NCBI RefSeq assembly: GCF_988243305.1
Contig: NZ_OZ547136.1
Strand: one strand, 5' to 3'
Length of the DNA: 64,000 bases
In this document: positions 32,683-64,000 of the stretch, piece after piece
How the letters are laid out: each line of letters begins with the position of its first letter
Position numbering within the stretch: position 1 is the first letter of the stretch
Program-made: the position numbers and the translations under genes
The notes under the pieces: model-generated
What the model was told of the DNA's origin: nothing
What the model saw: only the letters and a program-made list of their open reading frames with translations
The model's database searches: none

Positions 32683-33566
32683 GCTTCCTCGGTTGTCGTC
32701 TGTTGTTGCGGATTTTTCACCGCACGCACATGCTCTTCCAGTTCAATAAACGACGGACGTTCGCTGGAATAGAGCGTTTTGCGACCAAACTCAACGGCGA
32801 TAGGCGGTGCGTAACCGTTCAGATTAGAAAGCAGTGTGACTTTGACGCATTGCATCATTTTGCTGGTTTCGGCGCTTTTCTGACGTAAAACACTCGCTAA
32901 TGGGGAAATAAATCCGTAAGCCAATAAAATACCGAGGAAAGTCCCCACCATCGCATGTGCGATAAGCGCCCCCAGCTCGGCGGCAGGACGATCGGCTGAA
33001 CCTAACGCGTGAACGACCCCCATCACAGCCGCGACAATACCAAACGCCGGAAGTGAGTCCCCGACCAATGCCAGACTGTTCGCCGGGACTTCTGCTTCGC
33101 TTTCGTGCGTCTCAATCTCTTCATCCATCAGGGCTTCAATTTCGAAGGTATTCATGTGACCGCTGATAATCAGGCGCAGATAATCGACGATAAAATCAAG
33201 CATGACGCTATCCGCAAGGATGCGTGGGTAGCTGGCGAAGATCTCGCTCTCACGGGGATTTTCAATATCGCGTTCCAACGAAAACATCCCCATCTGCCGC
33301 GATTTCGCCATCAACCGATAAAGCAGAGCCAGCAGATCCATATACATTGCTTTGGTATATTTGGAGCGACGAAATAGCAACGGCAGCGCCTTCAGCGTGC
33401 CTTTAATCGCTTTGCCATTATTGCCGACGATAAACGACCCAATCCCTGCACCGGCAATAATCACCAGTTCAGCGGGTTGATAGAGTGCTCCAAGGCTTCC
33501 ACCGGTCATCAGATAACCGCCGAAAACTGTACCGAGAACAACCAGGTAACCTAATAAGATAAGCAC
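32679..33566 (-). CDS. motA: Flagellar motor stator protein MotA
   Basis: 295 aa, overlaps motB by 4 nt. Confidence 0.95.
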
Positions 33567-34624: not shown

Positions 34625-35404
34625 TATTCCCACCCAGAATAACCAACTTTATTTTTATGCGGTCTCACCGCACCCCGTGATGTCGCCGGGAAGCCCCGGT
34701 AAAAAATAATTAGCATTAGAATAGTTGCGATAAGCTGCAATAGGCAGAGCCCCTTTTTTGGATTTAATAAGTCCTTACAAATAGAAGGGGTTCTTTACAC
34801 TTATCTAAGATTTTTCCTAAATCGACGCAACTTTACTCGTCACTACACTCACATACAACGGAGGGGGGCTGCGATTTTCAATAATGTGTGATGCAGATCA
34901 CACAAAACGCTCAATTACTTAACATAAATGTATAAGTCATACTTTTGTTTTGGGTGTATTTCAATCTGTTAAAAAGTTTTTCGCTACGATAGCAAGTAAA
35001 AATGAAACAGGAATAATCGAAATGGGATGTTGCGCACAGTTAAAATAACTCACCGTAAATAATCATCTGCTATAAATAATTGCTTTAATGCAATACCCGA
35101 TAAGCTATTTTTAAACAGACACTTACCGCACAACAAACTAATTAAATACAAAGAAAGGCAACAATCAACTTAATGTTAATAAAATGTTTTACATATATTA
35201 ACCACTTGTTTGATATGGAGAATCAGTACATTATTTTCTTATAATTACAGTTGAAATCATATGATCACCGAGAGTGATTGATTAATTGTATTTACTAATA
35301 ATCACACTAATATTTACCTGTTTGACTGAGTTGGGATTGCGTCGATTCTCCATTAGGAGTAAAGCTTTAATGTCACCTGAAGTTCACAGAATAAGGAACA
35401 GGTT
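34625..35404 (-). promoter_or_regulatory. flhDC promoter/regulatory region (uninterrupted)
   Basis: ~780 bp AT-rich intergenic region upstream of flhD; no ORF resembling a transposase. Confidence 0.5.
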
Positions 35405-54135: not shown

Positions 54136-55288
<1,153 letters not shown>

Positions 55289-55487
55289 GACAGGATTTCC
55301 TTGTGTATGTGGGGTGCTCTGTGGCGCTCTGAGATGTGATTTGATTGAGGGTTTTACAGCGCGGACATTTAACTTCCAGATAACTGAAGCTGGCTCGTGC
55401 CAGTAGCTTGTTACAATGTCGGCACCGTATGTTTCGATACATGGCCGCATAACCTCCTGCTTTGTTGTTGATATCTTTATCACTCAA

Positions 55488-55508
55488 TCGATCGACAAAA
55501 ACGATCGA
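55488..55508 (-). promoter_or_regulatory. Paired GATC sites upstream of com-mom
   Basis: GATC at 55490-55493 and 55503-55506, about 50-65 bp upstream of the com start. Confidence 0.35.
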
Positions 55509-55698
55509 TTTGATTTATTTAATTGATACAACAAATAACACGAAATGTCATTAGCGAAAATTTATGAGTTTGATCACTAATTTTAAACGGTGCTGTAACG
55601 CATAAGTGCTGAATGATTGTACATTTGAATACCGCAAAGCAAACAAATCAACTAATTTATAGAAGTCAATTGGTTAATTGCCAGCGTAAGAGGCTGCT

Positions 55699-55992
55699 AT
55701 GGACAATCATGTAACGACGAGAAATCGAAAAATGATTGAAAATGCGGAAATCTATAATGATTATTTTTCCGATTATTCAGATGCCTGCAAATACAGTTCG
55801 AGTGCGGGAGAGTTCATATGCTTCAACTTTTTTATTAAATCTTATGTTTTTCCTCCACAGCAAGAAGATGGAGGTGTGCCACCTCCTGAAATCACTTTGC
55901 ACCGTATAGCCTCCGTCTCAATGATGGAGCAACAGGCTAATGAGCTGTATAGCATTCTGGGAACGATTCTACAAAAGCGTGAATCGGACTAA
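55699..55992 (+). CDS. Hypothetical protein (97 aa), opposite strand, AT-rich
   Basis: ORF with AAGAGG SD; low-GC context. Confidence 0.35.
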   Translation: MDNHVTTRNRKMIENAEIYNDYFSDYSDACKYSSSAGEFICFNFFIKSYVFPPQQEDGGVPPPEITLHRIASVSMMEQQANELYSILGTILQKRESD

Positions 55993-56159
55993 TGATACCG
56001 GTTCATTTGCCTGCCCGGATGGGGAAGCAGGATTGACTGCTCCATAAGCAGCTATATTTCTGAATACGAAATACTATCCAGCGATTACATATGGCTGGAT
56101 AGCGGCAAAGATGTTTTCATTAGTGTCAAACCGGCAGAGGACACCACCGGTTTGTATTG

Positions 56160-56414
56160 TTACATCATGGTACTGTCAGTTCCGGGCTGAGCCGGGTCTG
56201 GTTGCTCTGGCTGCGCGTCGGTTTTCGGCTCATTATCAGCATCACTGGCCGCAACTGCTGGCCCAATAAGTTTTGCCAGCACTTCATCAACGTAAGTGTC
56301 GATTTGTGCCTCAAAATCCTTGCGGACCTGCGCTTTCAGCAACTTATTTACTTCACCGGAATACAGTGCCTGTTTTACCAGGTCTTCAGTGACGGTGCCT
56401 TTAATTTCTGGCAT
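56160..56414 (-). CDS. Hypothetical small protein (84 aa)
   Basis: AGGAGG SD with 6-nt spacer; acidic proline-rich C-terminus. Confidence 0.5.
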   Translation of the reverse strand: MPEIKGTVTEDLVKQALYSGEVNKLLKAQVRKDFEAQIDTYVDEVLAKLIGPAVAASDADNEPKTDAQPEQPDPAQPGTDSTMM

Positions 56415-56449
56415 GTATATCCTCCTTATGCGGGAATAAAGCCCTGCAA

Positions 56450-56632
56450 TCAGGGCTGGGTCGGGTCTTTTGGGAGCGGAGTTACCTGCGCTGTTTTACT
56501 GAGTTTTTCAGCTGCTGCGTCCTCAATTTTGCGGCGAACATAATTTCTGATGGCCTTATAACCACCACTCACCAGATATAACGCACATACTGCCGTGCAG
56601 AAATACAATAAAATAAGCTGTAAAAATGTCAT
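56450..56632 (-). CDS. Hypothetical small membrane protein (60 aa)
   Basis: ATG 56632 with GGGAGGG SD; one predicted TM helix; hairpin at 56441-56456 overlapping stop. Confidence 0.45.
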   Translation of the reverse strand: MTFLQLILLYFCTAVCALYLVSGGYKAIRNYVRRKIEDAAAEKLSKTAQVTPLPKDPTQP

Positions 56633-56776
56633 TATCCCTCCCAATTATTGACATGGTGTTGACACCGGTAATATCTGTTAGGTAAAAAGGTGCACTGCAT
56701 TTTTTGCTTTGGATATAACGATCTTTTTGCCGCCGGTTTCTTGTTTTCCCTTACCGGCGGCATTTTTTTATCCTGC

Positions 56777-58831
56777 TTACGCGTTATTCACTTCCACCAC
56801 GATACTGTCAATCAGTACCGGGTAAGTCGCATTTTTAGTGATATCGGTCACGCGCAACTTGTCTGCCGTAAACGTGCCGACCGGAGACTGCGACAGCATG
56901 AATGGTGTCCCGTCCTTACCATCAATGACCGGCGTCACCTCAATACTGTTGTTACCGGCAAAACGGAAGCCCAGCGTATGCCATTCGTTATTAAATGCGC
57001 CGAATGACCCCAGCTTCGTGTTCTGCGCCGTGTTTCCTTTGTGATACATCACGTTAAGGTCTGTGGCATCGCTCTGTACGTAGAACGATGCCAGCAGGTT
57101 ATGACCGGCATTTCCTTCCAGAGTAACCCCTTGCGGCAGGGCAGAAACCGGCCAGTACAGCGCCAGTGCGTACTGATTAGCCGTAAGCGCGCCATCGAGT
57201 TTAAAACGACAACTGACAAGACCACCTTTACCCAGCAGGTCCGCACCATTACCAGCATCATGCTCAAGGTACCAGGGGGCTCTTCCTGTTTCCTTGGTCA
57301 GTTTCATTGCCTTACCCCCGCTGGCTCCGGCATCATCCACGATTTGAGCCTTGCCACCTCCGGCAGCCCAACCCTGTGGTGTCAACCGTCCTTCAGACTC
57401 AGATGCCCGGTAAGCAAATAGCGTACTCATCGTCGTGGTGTCTGCGGGTGGCGTGGACGGTTTTGATGGTGTATCAGGTGACGGCTTCTCATCCGGTGGT
57501 GTCACGGTCTGCCCGCGCATCAGTTCAGCCGTGCGCCCTGCATGGAGCATAATAGCTGAGGCCAGACGGTCTGAAATGACGCCCCTGCGTGCCCATGAGC
57601 TGAAATGGCTGTCACGCTGTGTCGAAACAAAACTGCCCTGGGTTCGGGATGCTGCACCGTAATACCCGACAGCCACAATATCCGGGTCTTCCGCCGGAGC
57701 ATTCGTTGGCGTGCTCTGTCCATTCTCATCCGTCAGGAACGGTACAAAGAAAATTTTCTGTGCTTCCTTGCCTTTGTAGCCACCGTATACTGCCTCATAT
57801 TTATCGGTGCCAGCGTTTTTCCAGTAATACGTGGTATCACCGCAAATCCACGGCACCGTGGTGGCATTTCCACTCACGCACTGCGCAGCAAGCGGAGCCA
57901 GGTCAGTTCTGAACTGCTGAACCATGGCCGTGAATAAACTATTATGCTGCTGGCTTCCTGAGGCAAGGTCTGCCTCTCCCTGCATCCAGACCACAGCCAG
58001 AAGTTTGTTTTTCGGGTTTTTCGCCAGCGCGACTTTGGTGCGGCTTACCAGGTCCTGATACAGAGGTTTACCGGCCCCCCAGCGTGAAGAATCAGCGGAA
58101 GCACCGCTGGCCTCACTGAATGAGCCGTCGGCTCCAGTGGTGAATGCTGACCCGCCACGACAACAGGGCACCAGAAGTATCCCGGCATTCTGTGGGATAT
58201 AGGGAAGCAGTTTTTTGGCAATATGCAACCCCTGACCGACAGTCCCGTACTGGCCTTTTGCCAGATCAGCTTTCGGGTGGTTTATCCCGCTCATATCCTG
58301 AACATCATGCAGGCAGTGGTCTGCCGGAATGATGTCGTTGTATGTACACGACGTACCGTTGGGCGTTACCGCACTGCGGCGTGCCAGTTGCTTAATGCGT
58401 GGGTCCGGGCGGTCAAACGAATCCGGTAACGGCAGCCCCTCGCCGTAGGCCATGCCATTTGACTGACCCGCGAGAATGACAACAAAGTAATATTCCGGCT
58501 CTGAACTGCTGCCATTCGTGCTACCGGAAGGCCCGGCGTTATCCGGTGCATTCCAGTCGGAGGGCGTGAGCGTTCCGGCCACGTCAGATGTGATTGGAAT
58601 GATGCCAGTCACGCCTGAACTGGTGATTTCTGCACTGGGATTACCGGATACCGGCATTACCCATAATGGCTCTTTCGTGCTGAAGCGGATCACGCAGTCT
58701 GCGAAGGTGATCCCCCCTTTATTACCCGAAGGGCGGAAAGGGCTTTCAATAAATGCCACCGTGCCACCGGCAACCTTGACTGAAAACTCTCCGGGCATGG
58801 CGGAGAGCATTTTCCACTTGGAGTCTGACAT
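56777..58831 (-). CDS. Prophage cargo protein with SGNH/SASA-type esterase-like domain (684 aa)
   Basis: Motif YYFVVILAGQSNGMAYGEG (GQSN block); Ser/Thr/Pro-rich linker; C-terminal beta-rich domain; start codon uncertain. Confidence 0.55.
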   Translation of the reverse strand: MSDSKWKMLSAMPGEFSVKVAGGTVAFIESPFRPSGNKGGITFADCVIRFSTKEPLWVMPVSGNPSAEITSSGVTGIIPITSDVAGTLTPSDWNAPDNAGPSGSTNGSSSEPEYYFVVILAGQSNGMAYGEGLPLPDSFDRPDPRIKQLARRSAVTPNGTSCTYNDIIPADHCLHDVQDMSGINHPKADLAKGQYGTVGQGLHIAKKLLPYIPQNAGILLVPCCRGGSAFTTGADGSFSEASGASADSSRWGAGKPLYQDLVSRTKVALAKNPKNKLLAVVWMQGEADLASGSQQHNSLFTAMVQQFRTDLAPLAAQCVSGNATTVPWICGDTTYYWKNAGTDKYEAVYGGYKGKEAQKIFFVPFLTDENGQSTPTNAPAEDPDIVAVGYYGAASRTQGSFVSTQRDSHFSSWARRGVISDRLASAIMLHAGRTAELMRGQTVTPPDEKPSPDTPSKPSTPPADTTTMSTLFAYRASESEGRLTPQGWAAGGGKAQIVDDAGASGGKAMKLTKETGRAPWYLEHDAGNGADLLGKGGLVSCRFKLDGALTANQYALALYWPVSALPQGVTLEGNAGHNLLASFYVQSDATDLNVMYHKGNTAQNTKLGSFGAFNNEWHTLGFRFAGNNSIEVTPVIDGKDGTPFMLSQSPVGTFTADKLRVTDITKNATYPVLIDSIVVEVNNA

Positions 58832-58916
58832 CGTCTTTTCTGCCTGTTTCTGAATTAAACAGAGTCAGAATAGCGACCGCTGAAAAATATGTGTTTTGCG
58901 GAAATTCAAAAAAGCG

Positions 58917-59489
58917 TCACGGTACTTTTGGTGACGGAGCTGGTGAGGCAGGAAAATAACGATAAAGGGTGGAAAGGCCAATATCAAATATCAGTGCGAT
59001 TTGTTTACGGGACTCGCCATTAGCCAGCAAACGGGCGATTTGCTCCCGCTCTTTCTCTGTCAGTTTCTGAGGTCTGCCGCCATGACGCCCCTGAGCACGG
59101 GCAGCAGCAAGACCCGCGCGTGTACGTTCAATAATGAGTTCCCGCTCCATTTCCGCCAGCGCGCCCATTATATGGAAAAAGAAACGTCCCATGGGAGTGG
59201 ATGTATCAATATTGTCCGTAATGCTGCGGAAGTTAACGCCGCGTTGCCGGAGTTCTTCTGTTAAAAGGACAAGGTGCTGCATACTGCGTCCAAGGCGATC
59301 CAGTTTCCAGACCAGCAGGGTATCCCCTGGCCGGAGTCGCTTTAATGCGCGTTTAAGTCCGGGACGCTCCCTTGTCTTACCGCTTATTCTATCTTCGAAA
59401 AACAGCTCACATCCTGCACATTCCAGCGCATTTCTTTGTAGCGCCGTATTCTGGTCATTTGTTGACACCCTGATATACCCAATCAGCAT
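58917..59489 (-). CDS. Serine DNA invertase, Gin/Pin/Hin family
   Basis: MLIGYIRVSTNDQ...WKLDRLGRS with catalytic Ser and C-terminal HTH; adjacent to invertible segment. Confidence 0.9.
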   Translation of the reverse strand: MLIGYIRVSTNDQNTALQRNALECAGCELFFEDRISGKTRERPGLKRALKRLRPGDTLLVWKLDRLGRSMQHLVLLTEELRQRGVNFRSITDNIDTSTPMGRFFFHIMGALAEMERELIIERTRAGLAAARAQGRHGGRPQKLTEKEREQIARLLANGESRKQIALIFDIGLSTLYRYFPASPAPSPKVP

Positions 59490-59554
59490 ACGATTTCCTT
59501 ATTATAAAAAGCCGGAATTGTCGCATGAGGAATAAAACAGAGTTAATCCTGGCT

Positions 59555-59580
59555 TTCCTGAAAACCTCGGTTTACGGGAA
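59555..59580. other. Invertase crossover site (gix/hix-like), left
   Basis: TTCCTGAAAACC-TC-GGTTTACGGGAA: 12-2-12 imperfect palindrome matching Gin/Hin site half-sites. Confidence 0.55.
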
Positions 59581-59690
59581 ACGGTAAACAGGGCGGCGAA
59601 TGCCCTGCCATCGGACGGCACCGCCGTTGCCGCGAATAGACTCGCCACCCCAAGAAATATTAATGGGGTTCCCTTTGACGGGACGCAGGA
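59567..59690. repeat. Inverted repeat, left copy
   Basis: 59567-59636 is an exact reverse complement of 60816-60885; second block 59661-59690 matches 60762-60791 with 1 mismatch. Confidence 0.75.
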
Positions 59691-59928
59691 CATAAACATC
59701 ACTTCTGGTATAACACAGCAGGATGCGGATTCCCGATATATCCAGGATATCAGGCTGGGAGCAGAGAACAGGCAGGTAATGTACGGTGGGGCATATTACT
59801 CTGCGTACGGTAATGTTATGGCAGGCCTGCAGATTGACAGTAAAGTTGATGCTTCAAACGATTTTATAGCATTCAGACCCCTGCAAAAATTAGTCGGAGG
59901 TACATGGATTACGGTATCTCAGTTATAA
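59567..59928 (+). other. Promoterless alternative tail-fiber C-terminal cassette
   Basis: No start codon; reading frame continues from the inverted repeat and ends at TAA 59926-59928; encodes [23 protein letters not shown]... shared with the expressed fiber then diverges. Confidence 0.5.
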
Positions 59929-59979
59929 ATAGTCAGTAAATAATATATTTTAAAACAGATTTATTTCCAGGAGGATTTT

Positions 59980-60501
59980 ATGGAACTAAAAAATATAACC
60001 CGTTATTATCCTGAAAATATGCCATATGGTAATAATGTTCAGTATTTCCAGAGTGAAGATGGTAAGGATTTCTACGAATCCCTGCCATTATTCACCAAAA
60101 AATATAAACTTTGCATAACACCTGACAGCGGCGTTATCTGCTCAATATCACAGGACGCCTCGGCGCTGTATCCTGCGGGGTTTTCTGTGGTTGAGGTCGA
60201 TGAACTCCCTGAAGGCACGGATATTTCAGGAAACTGGAAGTTTGATAATGGCATAATCTCCCGTATTCCGGTTAACTACGCAAGAAAACTGGAAGCAATG
60301 CGCCAGTCATATCTTAATCAGGCATATGAAAAAATTAATGACTGGAGAACGGAGCTACAACTGGGCACCATCAGCGATGAAGACAGAGCAGCACTTACCC
60401 AATGGATGGCATACATCAGTCAGGTGAAGAAAATGGAACTACCCGCCATTAAAACAGAAGCTGAATTTAACGCCATTAAATGGCCTGAGCAGCCACAGTA
60501 A
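59980..60501 (+). CDS. Tail fiber assembly protein (chaperone)
   Basis: 173 aa; AGGAGG SD; resembles tail fiber assembly proteins as I recall them. Confidence 0.75.
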   Translation: MELKNITRYYPENMPYGNNVQYFQSEDGKDFYESLPLFTKKYKLCITPDSGVICSISQDASALYPAGFSVVEVDELPEGTDISGNWKFDNGIISRIPVNYARKLEAMRQSYLNQAYEKINDWRTELQLGTISDEDRAALTQWMAYISQVKKMELPAIKTEAEFNAIKWPEQPQ

Positions 60502-60505
60502 TAAA

Positions 60506-60523
60506 GAAGGCCGGAAGGCCTTC
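60506..60523. terminator. Hairpin between convergent tfa and fiber genes
   Basis: GAAGGCC-GGAA-GGCCTTC; T-rich on the minus strand. Confidence 0.4.
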
Positions 60524-60532
60524 TGAATATCA

Positions 60533-61414
60533 TTATATACTTGCAGCCGTCACCCATGCTCCATTTAACAGATACTGCAACGGCCGGTAATACACGCCGC
60601 CGACGTTATCTGCCGTATTCTTACCGACATCCTGTACTTTAATTCCGGTAAGAACATTGCCGCCCCCCAGATTCAGATCCCAGCTTTCCCATGTTCCGGG
60701 CATATGTGCGGTCACCGACCCCAGTCTTATGGCGGTTACTGTTCCTGATGAGATAGTGATATCCTGCGTCCCGTCAAAGGGAACACCATTAATTGTGTGG
60801 GCATTTGCCAGCCTGTTCGCGGCAACGGCGGTGCCGTCCGATGGCAGGGCATTCGCCGCCCTGTTTACCGTTTCCCGTAAACCGACGTTATCGATAAAAG
60901 CCCCTTTATCCGGAATGTCTGCGCCGTTCTGCTCCCTGCGCAGGTAACGGTTATCACCTTCGCTTTTGCTGTAAACATCCAGATTATTACGGGCGGTTCC
61001 CTTATTCTCCAGGTCGGCGAGATTCTGATCCTTCGCCAGGGCATTAACGTCAGCGGGACCAAGACTGTTTTTTGTGGCAAGCGTCCCCAGACCAAGATAA
61101 CCACGGGCCAGACGCTGGGCCTCCGCACCGGCATCAGCAATTTCTTTCAGGTTATTTTTCCGGGAAAAGGCATTCGCAGCGATAATGGCTTTAATGGACA
61201 GCGTAAGCTGGTTTAACTGCGCCTTATCCGGCTGAATACTGGCTTCAGCCAGAATATTCAGCAGTTCGGCCTGGAGAATATTCAGCCAGTCCTGACCAAT
61301 CCAGCTGATACCTTTTTGTCCGTCACCTTCGGTAAACCAGGTGGTGGTATTACTCTGCGCCGGTGCCAGCGCAGGCATATTCGCCACGCCGGAATTATTA
61401 TCAACATGAAACAT
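60533..61414 (-). CDS. Tail fiber protein (constant N-terminus plus currently expressed variable C-terminus)
   Basis: 293-aa ORF; crossover site lies inside the gene at 60872-60897. Confidence 0.75.
60762..60885. repeat. Inverted repeat, right copy
   Basis: Reverse complement of 59567-59690. Confidence 0.75.
60872..60897. other. Invertase crossover site (gix/hix-like), right
   Basis: TTCCCGTAAACC-GA-CGTTATCGATAA; inner half-site and central dinucleotide are the exact reverse complement of the left site. Confidence 0.5.
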
Positions 61415-61974
61415 TAAATAGTCTCCTCTTCATGGCTGTTTGCATAAACGTAAATAAACGTCTGCCATGCAGGCTTATAACGGTTCAGAATACATTCCAG
61501 CGCACCGCCTTCATAAATACGCAGCGGCGTGAGAATATCATCCAGCACATTCATATTCCGGTAGCCGGTTTCACTGTTAATCGTGACAATACTGACCCAC
61601 TGCGAATCCGGTGAGGGCTGAATGTCAATCTGATAACCAAACTCCGCCGCAAACCGGATATAAAATTCACGGTTCAGCGAGGGCTTCATCCGGTATTTAT
61701 TTCCGGCATAACGCTGTCGCTCCGTGAGGGTGGCTCCGGCCATATCACACTCGGGAAGCCCGAGATAACGCTCCCAGTCTTCCAGCAGCAGGCGCGACGT
61801 GTCAGGGAAACGCTCGGCAAGCAGCTGTTTACCCGTCCAGGATACACGCGCTGTCGAATGACTGAGGCCCAGACATAATGATGCCAGTACGGATGACGGA
61901 CGCTTGTCCCATGCCAGCCCGTCAGGCAGTAACTGCAACAGGGCGCGCTGATGCGGGGTCAGGGTTACAGCCAT
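61414..61974 (-). CDS. Tail/baseplate protein (Mu gp48-like, tail protein I-like)
   Basis: 186 aa between J-like and fiber genes. Confidence 0.55.
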
Positions 61975-63047
61975 GTGATTTCTCCTACCGTCAGCAGCTC
62001 ACTGTCTCCCGCCTGAACTGACGTCAGCGGACTGCGCACTTCAAAATCCTCCAGATTTTTCACCCCTGCCACCGCCCGCCAGAAAGACGACGGCAGAACC
62101 AGACCGCCGGGCCGGGATTCGTTATACAACAGGTCGGTCAGCGCCTGTTTTACGGCCGCCTGATTCTCCGGTGTTTTCGGGATGATCCTGATGCTGAAGG
62201 GCACCGGCTTATTGGTCAGTTTAAACACGGTCACCGTCGGCCCCAGAGGCTGTCCGACAGGCTGGCCGGTCGCCGGATCATCATGACTGCGGATATAATC
62301 CGCCACCCGCTGAACATCACCGTCACCGGGGAAAATATCCGGGTTATTATCCTGAACAAACGTTACCCCCACGCTGCCCGCCTGCGGCCATTCCGGGCGG
62401 CACCATGCCCGCGTCACGCCCGGCACTTCACGCGCCCAGCGTTCAAAATCATACTGCGTGCCGCCGGACGGTGGATTCTGCACCCGGAAAACCAGACGGG
62501 AAAGCAGCTCCGGCACGGTTTCCACATCCGCACCACCGGTGATCCCCGTTCCGGTCACCGTGGCCGTCTGGTTGATCCCCGCCTGCGGTGTGATAAATGT
62601 CAGTTTTGTCCCTGCCGGGGCATTCCCCGCACGACCGGCACTTTCGGCTTCCACACTGACATTCAGCGTACCGGCCTTACCGGTCAGGGAGGTGGTGATA
62701 CGGTAAACCACGCCATCACTTCGCTGGAGAAGCACACCTTCCTTGATCCCCGCATCCGTGGTCAGCATCAGCTGAACCGGCCCGTCCCCCCGAGAGGCAG
62801 GCTTACGCATGACGCCCCAGAATGCACAGTGTTTCAGCAGTTCGGCTTCATCGGCTTCGGTCGGGATGATCTGACGCGCAATCCAGGCCAGATGCTCATG
62901 CTCCTGAGCAGATAACCCTGCCTGAGCGTAAGCAATGGCATTCAGGGTGGTTTCATTCACACCCGGCTGCGAGCCGGGCAGGCGCTGGCTGATATCCTGC
63001 TGTGTCTGCGTGATTAACTGTGCCAGCGGTAAAGGCTGATAAGGCAT
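61965..63047 (-). CDS. Baseplate J-like protein (Mu gp47-like)
   Basis: 360 aa; position in baseplate cluster. Confidence 0.65.
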   Translation of the reverse strand: MPYQPLPLAQLITQTQQDISQRLPGSQPGVNETTLNAIAYAQAGLSAQEHEHLAWIARQIIPTEADEAELLKHCAFWGVMRKPASRGDGPVQLMLTTDAGIKEGVLLQRSDGVVYRITTSLTGKAGTLNVSVEAESAGRAGNAPAGTKLTFITPQAGINQTATVTGTGITGGADVETVPELLSRLVFRVQNPPSGGTQYDFERWAREVPGVTRAWCRPEWPQAGSVGVTFVQDNNPDIFPGDGDVQRVADYIRSHDDPATGQPVGQPLGPTVTVFKLTNKPVPFSIRIIPKTPENQAAVKQALTDLLYNESRPGGLVLPSSFWRAVAGVKNLEDFEVRSPLTSVQAGDSELLTVGEITWL

Positions 63048-63484
63048 TACTCCCCCTTAAGATCAGCATAAAAAATCATGGGCCTCACTGAACCATCAGG
63101 CAGGGTTATGCGCACCGAAAGCGCCAGCCGCGCGTGTCCCACACGTTCTGCATGACAGACCACGGATGACGCCACGCCATCCTGACTGAGCCAGCCCAGC
63201 GCCTCATCCGCGTAAGCACGGGCACGGCTTATCACCGAGGCCAGCGTTTTTTCCCGGCTGAGAAGCCACAGACGGGAGCCAATGGGGCGCGGGCGAAAAC
63301 TGTCTCCCCACCATCCCCGGCGGTCGCGCGTACCGTCAGGGATTTCATCCGATGCCAGCGCCCGGCGGTCAGTAAACAGCGAAATCAGAACGGCCGTCAG
63401 CAGACTGTCATCCGTCAGCAGGTCGGCACCGTTCAGTTGCAGCGAACCGCATCCCTGATCCCACACAATTGCAATATCAGCCAT
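63047..63484 (-). CDS. Baseplate protein (Mu gp46-like)
   Basis: Internal Met MADIAIVWDQ of longer ORF; overlaps neighbouring genes by a few nt. Confidence 0.5.
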   Translation of the reverse strand: MADIAIVWDQGCGSLQLNGADLLTDDSLLTAVLISLFTDRRALASDEIPDGTRDRRGWWGDSFRPRPIGSRLWLLSREKTLASVISRARAYADEALGWLSQDGVASSVVCHAERVGHARLALSVRITLPDGSVRPMIFYADLKGE

Positions 63485-63986
63485 TCTCCGGCACTCCTGT
63501 CTTACTGCCTTCGCCGTTATCATGATGCACATGGCCGGAATACCGTATCCCTGCAATAACGGCATCCGACATTGTGAACAGTCCCTGAGATTTCCCCGTA
63601 CCCTCAAGCGCGAAATTACCCTTAACATGCAGGTTCTTATCCACCGTCACATTGCCCGTAAAGGTGGCTTCCGGCGTATCCACCCGCATCCCCTCGTCGG
63701 CGTAAATCTCCAGCATTTTGCATGTCACAATAATGCGGCCATCCTTTGTTAACCGTATCCGGTGCCCCTCATGGTGATACACCCCCGTATCTCCGGCTGT
63801 GAGTCCGGTCGGGCGGCTGCGCCGGTCTTCCACCACAAGCACCACAGTCTGATCCCGCTGTCCGCCCAGACAGGCAAAAAAGGTTTCCGCACCCGGCAGG
63901 GGAACGCTGATCTGCCCGTACTGCTGGGGACGCTCCACATCATCAAAGGTTTCGCCGTCCATGCCGGTGAGCTGCACATTCTGCAT
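63477..63986 (-). CDS. Baseplate spike/hub protein (gpV-like, Mu gp45-like)
   Basis: 169 aa; first gene of the baseplate block in this window. Confidence 0.55.
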   Translation of the reverse strand: MQNVQLTGMDGETFDDVERPQQYGQISVPLPGAETFFACLGGQRDQTVVLVVEDRRSRPTGLTAGDTGVYHHEGHRIRLTKDGRIIVTCKMLEIYADEGMRVDTPEATFTGNVTVDKNLHVKGNFALEGTGKSQGLFTMSDAVIAGIRYSGHVHHDNGEGSKTGVPENG

Positions 63987-64000
63987 TTTCAGTTCGTCAT

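Follow-up and report, generated by a model that had tools for sequence, protein, structure and literature searches.

A Gin-type invertible tail fibre segment with a single, convergent chaperone gene in a Mu-like prophage of Escherichia coli

Exchange of the C-terminus of a tail fibre by a DNA invertase is known from the G segment of phage Mu (invertase Gin), the C segment of phage P1 (Cin) and the P segment of e14 (Pin). Exchange of such fibre tips is widespread among Mu-, P1- and P2-type phages and tailocins, and the tips are used to give engineered phages and pyocins new targets. As a rule, a fibre tip is accompanied by a chaperone of its own. In the P1-like record there are two tail fibre assembly (tfa) genes, one per tip, and e14 carries tfaP and tfaE (PMC12529663). 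Here we analyse a stretch of 64,000 nucleotides (nt) of DNA (the window; NCBI RefSeq assembly GCF_988243305.1, contig NZ_OZ547136.1) that contains one end of a Mu-like prophage, and in it an invertible fibre segment with one tfa gene only, lying on the strand opposite to the fibre gene. The region is the equivalent of the G segment in a transposable Escherichia coli prophage of the Sp18 type. The Sp18 family has already been reported to carry “an invertible host-specificity region” (Asadulghani et al., 2009, PMC2669165). The existence of the switch is on record, then; its anatomy, as far as we found, apparently is not, and our literature searches returned no paper on the single-chaperone layout.

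The invertible segment and its two orientations

The segment is bounded by two 26-base-pair (bp) sites in inverted orientation, with imperfect 12-bp half-sites and identical 2-bp cores, as is expected of the sites of an invertase system. The left one, proximal to the invertase gene, occupies positions 59555-59580 and reads TTCCTGAAAACC-TC-GGTTTACGGGAA, with the core TC at 59567-59568; it agrees with Mu gix at 21 of 26 positions. The right one lies inside the fibre gene at 60872-60897, its reverse complement reads TTATCGATAACG-TC-GGTTTACGGGAA, and the agreement with Mu gix is 22 of 26. Its core, GA at 60884-60885, corresponds to the last two bases of the GTC codon for Val177 of the fibre. The invertible segment measured between the cores is 1,319 bp long (59567-60885). 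Inward of the core the two copies are perfectly identical for exactly 70 nt (59567-59636 and 60816-60885) whereas the outer half-sites agree at only 7 of 12 positions, so that the homology starts at the central dinucleotide. The first-pass annotation, made by a model from the letters of the window, had placed both crossover sites correctly to the base and had recognised this starting point. The full inverted repeat extends over 86 nt at 94% identity and continues for 50 nt more at 84%. The 12-nt inner half-site GGTTTACGGGAA occurs exactly twice in the 64 kb, once per strand; the chance expectation, with up to one mismatch allowed, is 0.31 matches.

Mu gix as found in NC_000929 reads TTATCCAAAACC-TC-GGTTTACAGGAA. 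The bases that come next, ACGGTAAAC, are shared by Mu and the window sites, which makes the crossover point homologous to that of Mu, within codons for ...GL(R/Q)ETVN.... A scan of the window with the Mu gix consensus, allowing up to three mismatches, gave no match because the real sites deviate at 4–5 positions. The left site is kept in every family member examined. Both cores are TC in the window and in the nine other two-site loci that we parsed, whereas both are TT in Sp18 of O157 Sakai (locus L094, sites at 33324-33349 and 34684-34709); the 2-bp core thus covaries between paired sites.

The gene adjoining the left site (58917-59489, minus strand) codes for a serine DNA invertase of the Gin family with 190 amino acids (aa), which shares 74% identity with Mu Gin along 184 aa. 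Crystal structures of Gin (4m6f and 3uj3) are matched at E 1e-88, the catalytic Ser9 in the motif MLIGYIRVSTNDQ being aligned, and the protein contains the Pfam domains Resolvase (E 4e-51) and HTH_7 (E 1e-14). A length of about 190 aa, a resolvase domain, a C-terminal helix-turn-helix and a serine near residue 9–10 are the features of small serine recombinases, and all of them are present. Gin-type inversion uses in cis a recombinational enhancer bound by Fis, which in Mu lies inside the 5′ end of gin. The nucleotide identity between the window gene and Mu gin peaks in the first 60 nt (82%), and the identity at third codon positions is 0.57 in nt 1-90; it is 0.27–0.47 in the next five bins of 90 nt, which reach nt 540, and 0.50 in a last, short bin of four codons. 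Judging from this comparison of the two genes, the raised identity at the 5′ end hints at an extra constraint on the DNA.

We have searched 5,426 complete E. coli genomes with the 2.6-kb region and with its in-silico inverted form. The window orientation was found in 17 records at 98.7% identity or more and the exact inverted form in four at 99.6% or more; copies at least 99.5% identical occur in both orientations. Two strains, DLI.5a and TOE17, have two prophage copies each, one in either orientation. Inverting positions 59567-60885 in silico reproduces the allele of strain NCCP 13983 with nine mismatches in 2,601 nt. This strain and FORC_029 represent the same clone, with genomes of 5,189,943 and 5,189,944 bp, respectively, and with the prophage in the same fimbrial usher gene by ssuEAD; both encode the same invertase protein as the window. 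Over 20,601 bp the two differ at 819 positions, all of them located between the two sites, and after in-silico inversion between the cores the number of mismatches in the 20,601 bp is zero. Their repeat arms differ from the 18th base inward and these polymorphisms have travelled with the segment, so that the crossover is confined to 19 bp including the core (equivalent to 59567-59585 of the window), which argues for site-specific over general homologous recombination. The event was a precise and conservative inversion at the core, as seen by comparison of assemblies and not by enzymatic assay, and on this comparative basis inversion of the segment is real. The first-pass annotation had proposed to give up the idea of a Gin-type invertible fibre cassette if the inverted orientation were never seen. 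Both orientations exist in public genomes, also within one clone whose assemblies differ by nothing else, and the idea of a Gin-type cassette is supported. As a precedent we considered the long-read-confirmed Mu-type inversion of Milman et al. (2023; CP066032) and set it aside, as it is of the classical form with two tfa genes.

The fibre, its two tips and the chaperone gene

The tail fibre gene (60533-61414, minus strand) codes for 293 aa. Its constant N-terminal part, residues 1-177 (60886-61414, minus strand), matches the structures 5yvq_A and 8ju3_A at E 1e-46, and residues 1-198 are 47% identical to residues 1-191 of Mu S. The C-terminus expressed at present, here called tip type A1, is encoded within the invertible segment (60533-60885, minus strand). 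The alternative C-terminus, tip type B1, forms a cassette on the plus strand (59569-59928) of 119 codons, in frame and with no start codon of its own. In-silico inversion joins it to the fibre, giving a protein of 296 aa followed by a co-oriented tfa gene, as the first-pass annotation had anticipated, and this arrangement exists in nature: both fused forms are present in RefSeq (WP_000469166.1 and WP_032184567.1), the latter being the cassette-to-fibre join of a naturally inverted allele. A site inside the fibre gene and a constant N-terminus that can be joined to either of two opposed C-terminal cassettes are characteristic of the G segment of Mu and the C segment of P1, and both are found here.

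Both tips are short and homologous to the tip domain at the very C-terminus of Mu S and S′, P1 S and P2 H. For tip A the identity is 52% with a P1-like S tip and 45% with a P2-like H tip; for tip B it is 36% with the Mu S tip. Between tips A and B the identity is also 36%, a divergence compatible with different receptors, and we infer that the host ranges conferred by the two tips differ. Across the family the tips form a mosaic, with types A1 and A2 convergent with tfa and types B1, B2 and B3 upstream of it, and every tip type ends in a shared C-terminal motif, YYRPxQ...NGxWxT. A Pfam scan of the fibre found no domain, and in NCBIfam neither the fibre nor the cassette nor tfa has a model.

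The sole tfa gene (59980-60501, plus strand) codes for 173 aa. Its product matches Pfam Caudo_TAP (PF02413, E 6e-19), PHROG 136 (E 5e-56) and, at E 4e-16, the Mu U protein in the S-U co-crystal (5yvq_B), and is 28–32% identical to Mu U and U′; by homology it is a member of the Caudo_TAP / Mu U family and a predicted chaperone. No second tfa is annotated in the whole of a sister prophage. In all 10 loci parsed there is a single tfa, located between the two cassettes, and the same is true of Sp18 and of every relative of the short-fibre (Sp18) type in IMG/VR whose contig extends past the fibre. A co-oriented tfa behind each cassette, the S-U and S′-U′ arrangement, is not what we find, and the first-pass annotation was right in contrasting the single, oppositely oriented chaperone gene with the two of Mu and P1; two are present in Mu and in a P1-like phage. 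Among more distant IMG/VR relatives, one with a fibre N-terminus 74% identical (L062, 4819-7223) has three gix-like sites, longer tips and, once more, a single tfa that converges with the fibre; a further relative (L057) shows the classical layout with two tfa genes.

An AT-rich spacer of 51 nt (59929-59979, plus strand) lies upstream of tfa, and in relatives it measures 79–121 nt. The Sp18 family differs in this 51–121-nt spacer from Mu, P1-like and P2-like phages, whose fibre genes directly adjoin or overlap tfa, and the difference favours a Tfa shared by both tips. Between the stop codons of the convergent tfa and fibre genes there is a GC-rich terminator-like hairpin (60505-60524), of which the structure is kept and the sequence is different in other family members. 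By homology to Mu U, Tfa residues 20-100 are the fibre-binding domain (PMC9608196). These residues are at least 91% identical across elements with the tip pairs B1/A1, B3/A1, B2/A2 and B3/A2, so that Tfa does not covary with the tip type: a nearly invariant Tfa is combined with five tip types across the family.

Working of the switch and rival explanations

The reading that we favour, with a probability of roughly 0.6, is a Gin-type switch between two minimal tips that are served by one generalist Tfa, transcribed independently of the fibre operon. The invertase would pair the two gix-like sites, one after fibre codon 177 and one adjoining its own gene, and strand exchange at the identical 2-bp core would flip the 1,319 bp, replacing the last ~117 residues of the fibre (tip A1) by tip B1, presumably for another receptor. 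The tfa gene stands head-to-tail behind tip B and tail-to-tail against tip A, with the hairpin between it and tip A. Both orientations would yield functional fibres, since the single Tfa, probably made in sufficient amount in lytic growth, would act on tip A as well and fold both tips via their shared C-terminal motif. In the window state the silent cassette and tfa would form a transcription unit of their own, and in the opposite state tfa could also be read from the late fibre transcript.

The pattern of selection indicates that the state with tfa antisense to the fibre is used. Tips in the convergent position, which have no co-oriented tfa, show ratios of nonsynonymous to synonymous substitution rates (dN/dS) of 0.07–0.15 at dS 0.34–1.6, and tip A1 gives 0.13–0.15 against diverged alleles. 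They are indistinguishable from the upstream tips (0.09–0.32) and from tfa (0.08–0.22). There is, in addition, a lineage that has lost the invertase and the upstream cassette and is fixed with fibre and tfa convergent. It is represented by strains M1, M3, M18 and CI5 and by seven IMG/VR contigs, and all eight copies parsed in detail (L002/L093, which is E. coli M3, L021, L022 and L024-L028) share one common deletion junction. M3 carries a complete prophage, free of annotated pseudogenes, whose insertion into flgL we read as the mark of a fairly recent transposition. In this lineage tfa is intact in every copy, with dN/dS of 0.11–0.23 at dS up to 0.43, and the 86-nt spacer upstream of it, at 92–100% identity, is at least as conserved as coding sequence.

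Expression data from O157 Sakai, a ten-point growth time course on strand-specific 70-mer arrays (PMC2241611), also bear on this question. The tfa gene ECs4990 (from -0.19 to 1.31) and the cassette ECs4991 (from -0.38 to 1.06) rise jointly at stationary-phase entry and the fibre gene ECs4989 drifts by less than one unit in the same time course; ECs4988 and ECs4992 are absent from the supplementary file searched (PMC2241611). Cassette and tfa therefore act as a transcription unit of their own in the window state, and their co-induction implies a promoter that either enters the segment from the invertase side or lies within the cassette. The cassette had been called promoterless in the first-pass annotation, which is right for translation and probably wrong for transcription.

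Several points weigh against our reading. The main gap in it is the cassette/tfa promoter, which we could not locate: neither the tool scan, whose sigma-70 search gave nothing on the tfa strand, nor a weight-matrix scan found a convincing sigma-70 promoter upstream of tfa or the cassette, and the scan of the intergenic region at the invertase-side site gave nothing clear. Two weight-matrix candidates, TTGACA-17-AACGAT inside the window cassette and ATGATA-17-TATAAT in the junction DNA of the invertase-less lineage, were rejected as unconserved or mediocre. A box CCGCAAAWCCTGCCC-N14-TTAYGCT is common to the regions upstream of the lysozyme and protease/scaffold genes of the M3 prophage (L093, 21368-21382 and 29556-29570, minus strand) and may be the late-promoter element of the Sp18-type phage (presumed Plys and PI); it was not found near tfa or elsewhere in the window. 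The transcript data come from an old microarray on a homologue ~84% identical at the DNA level and the changes are modest; they describe a lysogen and not lytic growth, in a culture whose orientation was not measured. Finally, the purifying selection on tfa in the fixed lineage could stem in part from alleles imported by recombination with switchable relatives, and the presence of two tip types in that lineage indicates that recombination has occurred.

It is conceivable, at a clearly lower probability, that tip A folds without a chaperone and that Tfa serves only the co-transcribed tip B, so that the flip would switch both the tip and the use of a chaperone. This would fit the position of tfa, directly downstream of tip B only, the hairpin after the stop codon of tip A and the failure of the scans to identify a tfa promoter. 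Moreover, the Tfa of Mu is reported to stay on the mature fibre and to contribute to receptor recognition (PMC9608196), and a chaperone-free tip A would therefore mean a bare tip in the window state against a Tfa-capped one in the other. Such a toggling of tip and chaperone together, which would give two layers of receptor specificity, appears unlikely to us on the evidence analysed here. What counts against a chaperone-free tip A is that the invertase-less lineage, which never uses tip B, keeps tfa and its spacer under purifying selection; that the homologous tips of Mu, P1-like and P2-like phages, 45–52% identical in the last two, each have a tfa behind them; that Tfa shows no covariation with tip B types; and that Sakai transcribes the cassette and tfa while in the antisense state. 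The first-pass suggestion that the window state is chaperone-independent is thus the less likely one, and a generalist Tfa remains our preference.

The other first-pass suggestion, that one state may be non-infective, would make the window state an OFF state in which the fibre misfolds for want of a co-transcribed chaperone. The absence of a co-oriented tfa is the sole point in its favour, and we consider it improbable. Tips in the convergent position are under purifying selection, and complete prophages, that of M3 among them, are fixed in this state at new insertion sites. Sp18, which is in the same state in the Sakai reference genome, is predicted intact, is spontaneously induced and efficiently packaged, and gives visible particles (Asadulghani et al., 2009, PMC2669165). 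The antisense state is also found in most assemblies, 208 E. coli genomes against 33 and about 25 IMG/VR loci against 8 (L016-L068), a count that weighs little because the samples are clonal and assemblies report only the majority orientation of a culture; we have therefore rejected the majority orientation as proof of an infective state, the genomes not being independent. Some 10 IMG/VR contigs end within the inverted repeat, which is no evidence for mixed populations because the repeat alone can break an assembly.

A very improbable possibility is that the orientations arise by general homologous recombination between the 86–150-bp inverted repeats, with the invertase irrelevant or inactive. 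The repeats are long enough for RecA-dependent inversion. Against this, the crossover of the clone pair fell within 19 bp holding the core though the repeat reaches much further, the 2-bp core covaries between sites, the sites keep 21–22 of 26 positions of Mu gix next to an intact invertase 74% identical to Gin, and in the lineage lacking the invertase and one site all copies examined are in a single orientation. That the window copy is a frozen remnant which no longer switches is hardly credible, as nothing in the sequence favours it beyond a single assembly showing one orientation, and its invertase protein is the same as in the clone for which inversion is documented, its cores match, its repeat is perfect over 70 bp and copies at least 99.5% identical exist in both orientations.

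The surrounding prophage and comparison with known systems

One end of a Mu-like prophage, read on the minus strand, takes up the right-hand 9.6 kb of the window (54423-64000). Only this part lies within the window, and completeness was judged from sister copies, which are complete Mu-like prophages of ~38 kb with a repressor, transposases A and B, a Mor/C-type activator and lysis, head and tail genes. Homologues of the Mu baseplate genes gp45-48 (63477-63986, 63047-~63484, 61965-63047 and 61414-61974) precede the fibre gene. Between the invertase and com-mom there is a gene of 684 codons for an esterase-like protein (56777-58831, minus strand) with a sialate-acetylesterase (SASA) domain and DUF6645, and next after it come two small genes, DUF1378 (56450-56644) and DUF826 (56160-56414). 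The SASA/DUF6645-DUF1378-DUF826 block presumably resembles the nanS-p region of Shiga toxin (Stx) and lambdoid phages. The right end of the prophage is formed by two open reading frames (ORFs) on the minus strand, a com-like one with a zinc-finger motif CRHCNKLL...CPRCK (55242-55487) and a mom-like one (54551-55483), which as listed uses an upstream GTG start and is longer than the 235–245-aa versions annotated in sister copies.

The prophage ends at 54423, where it splits dcyD, the ORF to the left (54136-54558) being the C-terminal third of D-cysteine desulfhydrase; tcyL, tcyN and sdiA follow in the window beyond this remnant. Sister copies also split a host gene each, flgL in M3, sorM in O157 Sakai, a fimbrial usher gene in FORC_029 and an rhs region in JE86, and from this diversity of sites it follows that the phage family transposes actively. 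The Mu gene order, gin, com-mom at the right end and the varied insertion sites are those of a transposable phage of the Mu-like Sp18 type. The family is present in ~4% of complete E. coli genomes, O157:H7 included.

For phage biologists and fibre engineers the locus is, we think, moderately interesting. A near-invariant Tfa occurs with five tip types and apparently works even when encoded opposite to the fibre, which suggests that the chaperone is a generalist and that the switch, at 1.3 kb, is a minimal one; if this is true, the design of switchable or retargeted fibres would become simpler. If the bare-versus-capped alternative were true instead, tip A would be naturally chaperone-independent within an otherwise chaperone-dependent tip family, which would be useful for fibre and tailocin engineering. 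The switch also accounts for the contigs that break at this locus and for the pseudogenes repeatedly annotated there as “partial tail protein”.

Among the systems described before, a tailocin offers a parallel outside phages. As cited in two reports, the Ein invertase of carotovoricin Er, from Pectobacterium, swaps the fibre C-terminus and changes the target range (PMC13195805, PMC4272514). The window system, like those of P1 and e14, shares with it the invertase-driven exchange of the fibre C-terminus, and against the two tfa genes of the P1-like record it has one. Nguyen et al. are said to have described in 2001 a carotovoricin segment of 790 bp that holds just two C-termini and no chaperone.

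The G segment of Mu occupies the same genome position, between the baseplate genes gp45-48 on one side and gin, com and mom on the other; its crossover falls at the homologous place in the fibre gene, and its Tfa proteins belong to the same family. The annotated order in Mu is gp45-48, S, U, U′, S′, gin, com, mom, and that of the window is the same apart from the esterase block: its esterase-like, DUF1378 and DUF826 genes stand between gin and com, where Mu has nothing. The G segment measures 3 kb with variable parts of ~320–335 aa, compared with 1.3 kb and ~117 aa in the window, and Mu has two tfa genes, abutting the upstream tip, as against one behind a spacer in the Sp18 family. Sp18 of Sakai has an identical layout, with the fibre ECs_4989, tfa on the opposite strand (ECs_4990), the cassette ECs_4991, the invertase ECs_4992, the esterase-like gene, com and mom. 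A synthetic query of tfa joined to the constant part of the fibre matched O157:H7 strains at ~84% DNA identity. Sp18 differs from the window in its tips (A2/B2 in O157-type loci versus A1/B1), in the C-terminal half of Tfa and in the site core (TT in Sakai versus TC). The system of the window is therefore of a known kind, the G segment of Mu, in a known family, that of Sp18, and is not a new class; its single convergent chaperone is a genuine and conserved architectural variant, and one that apparently works.

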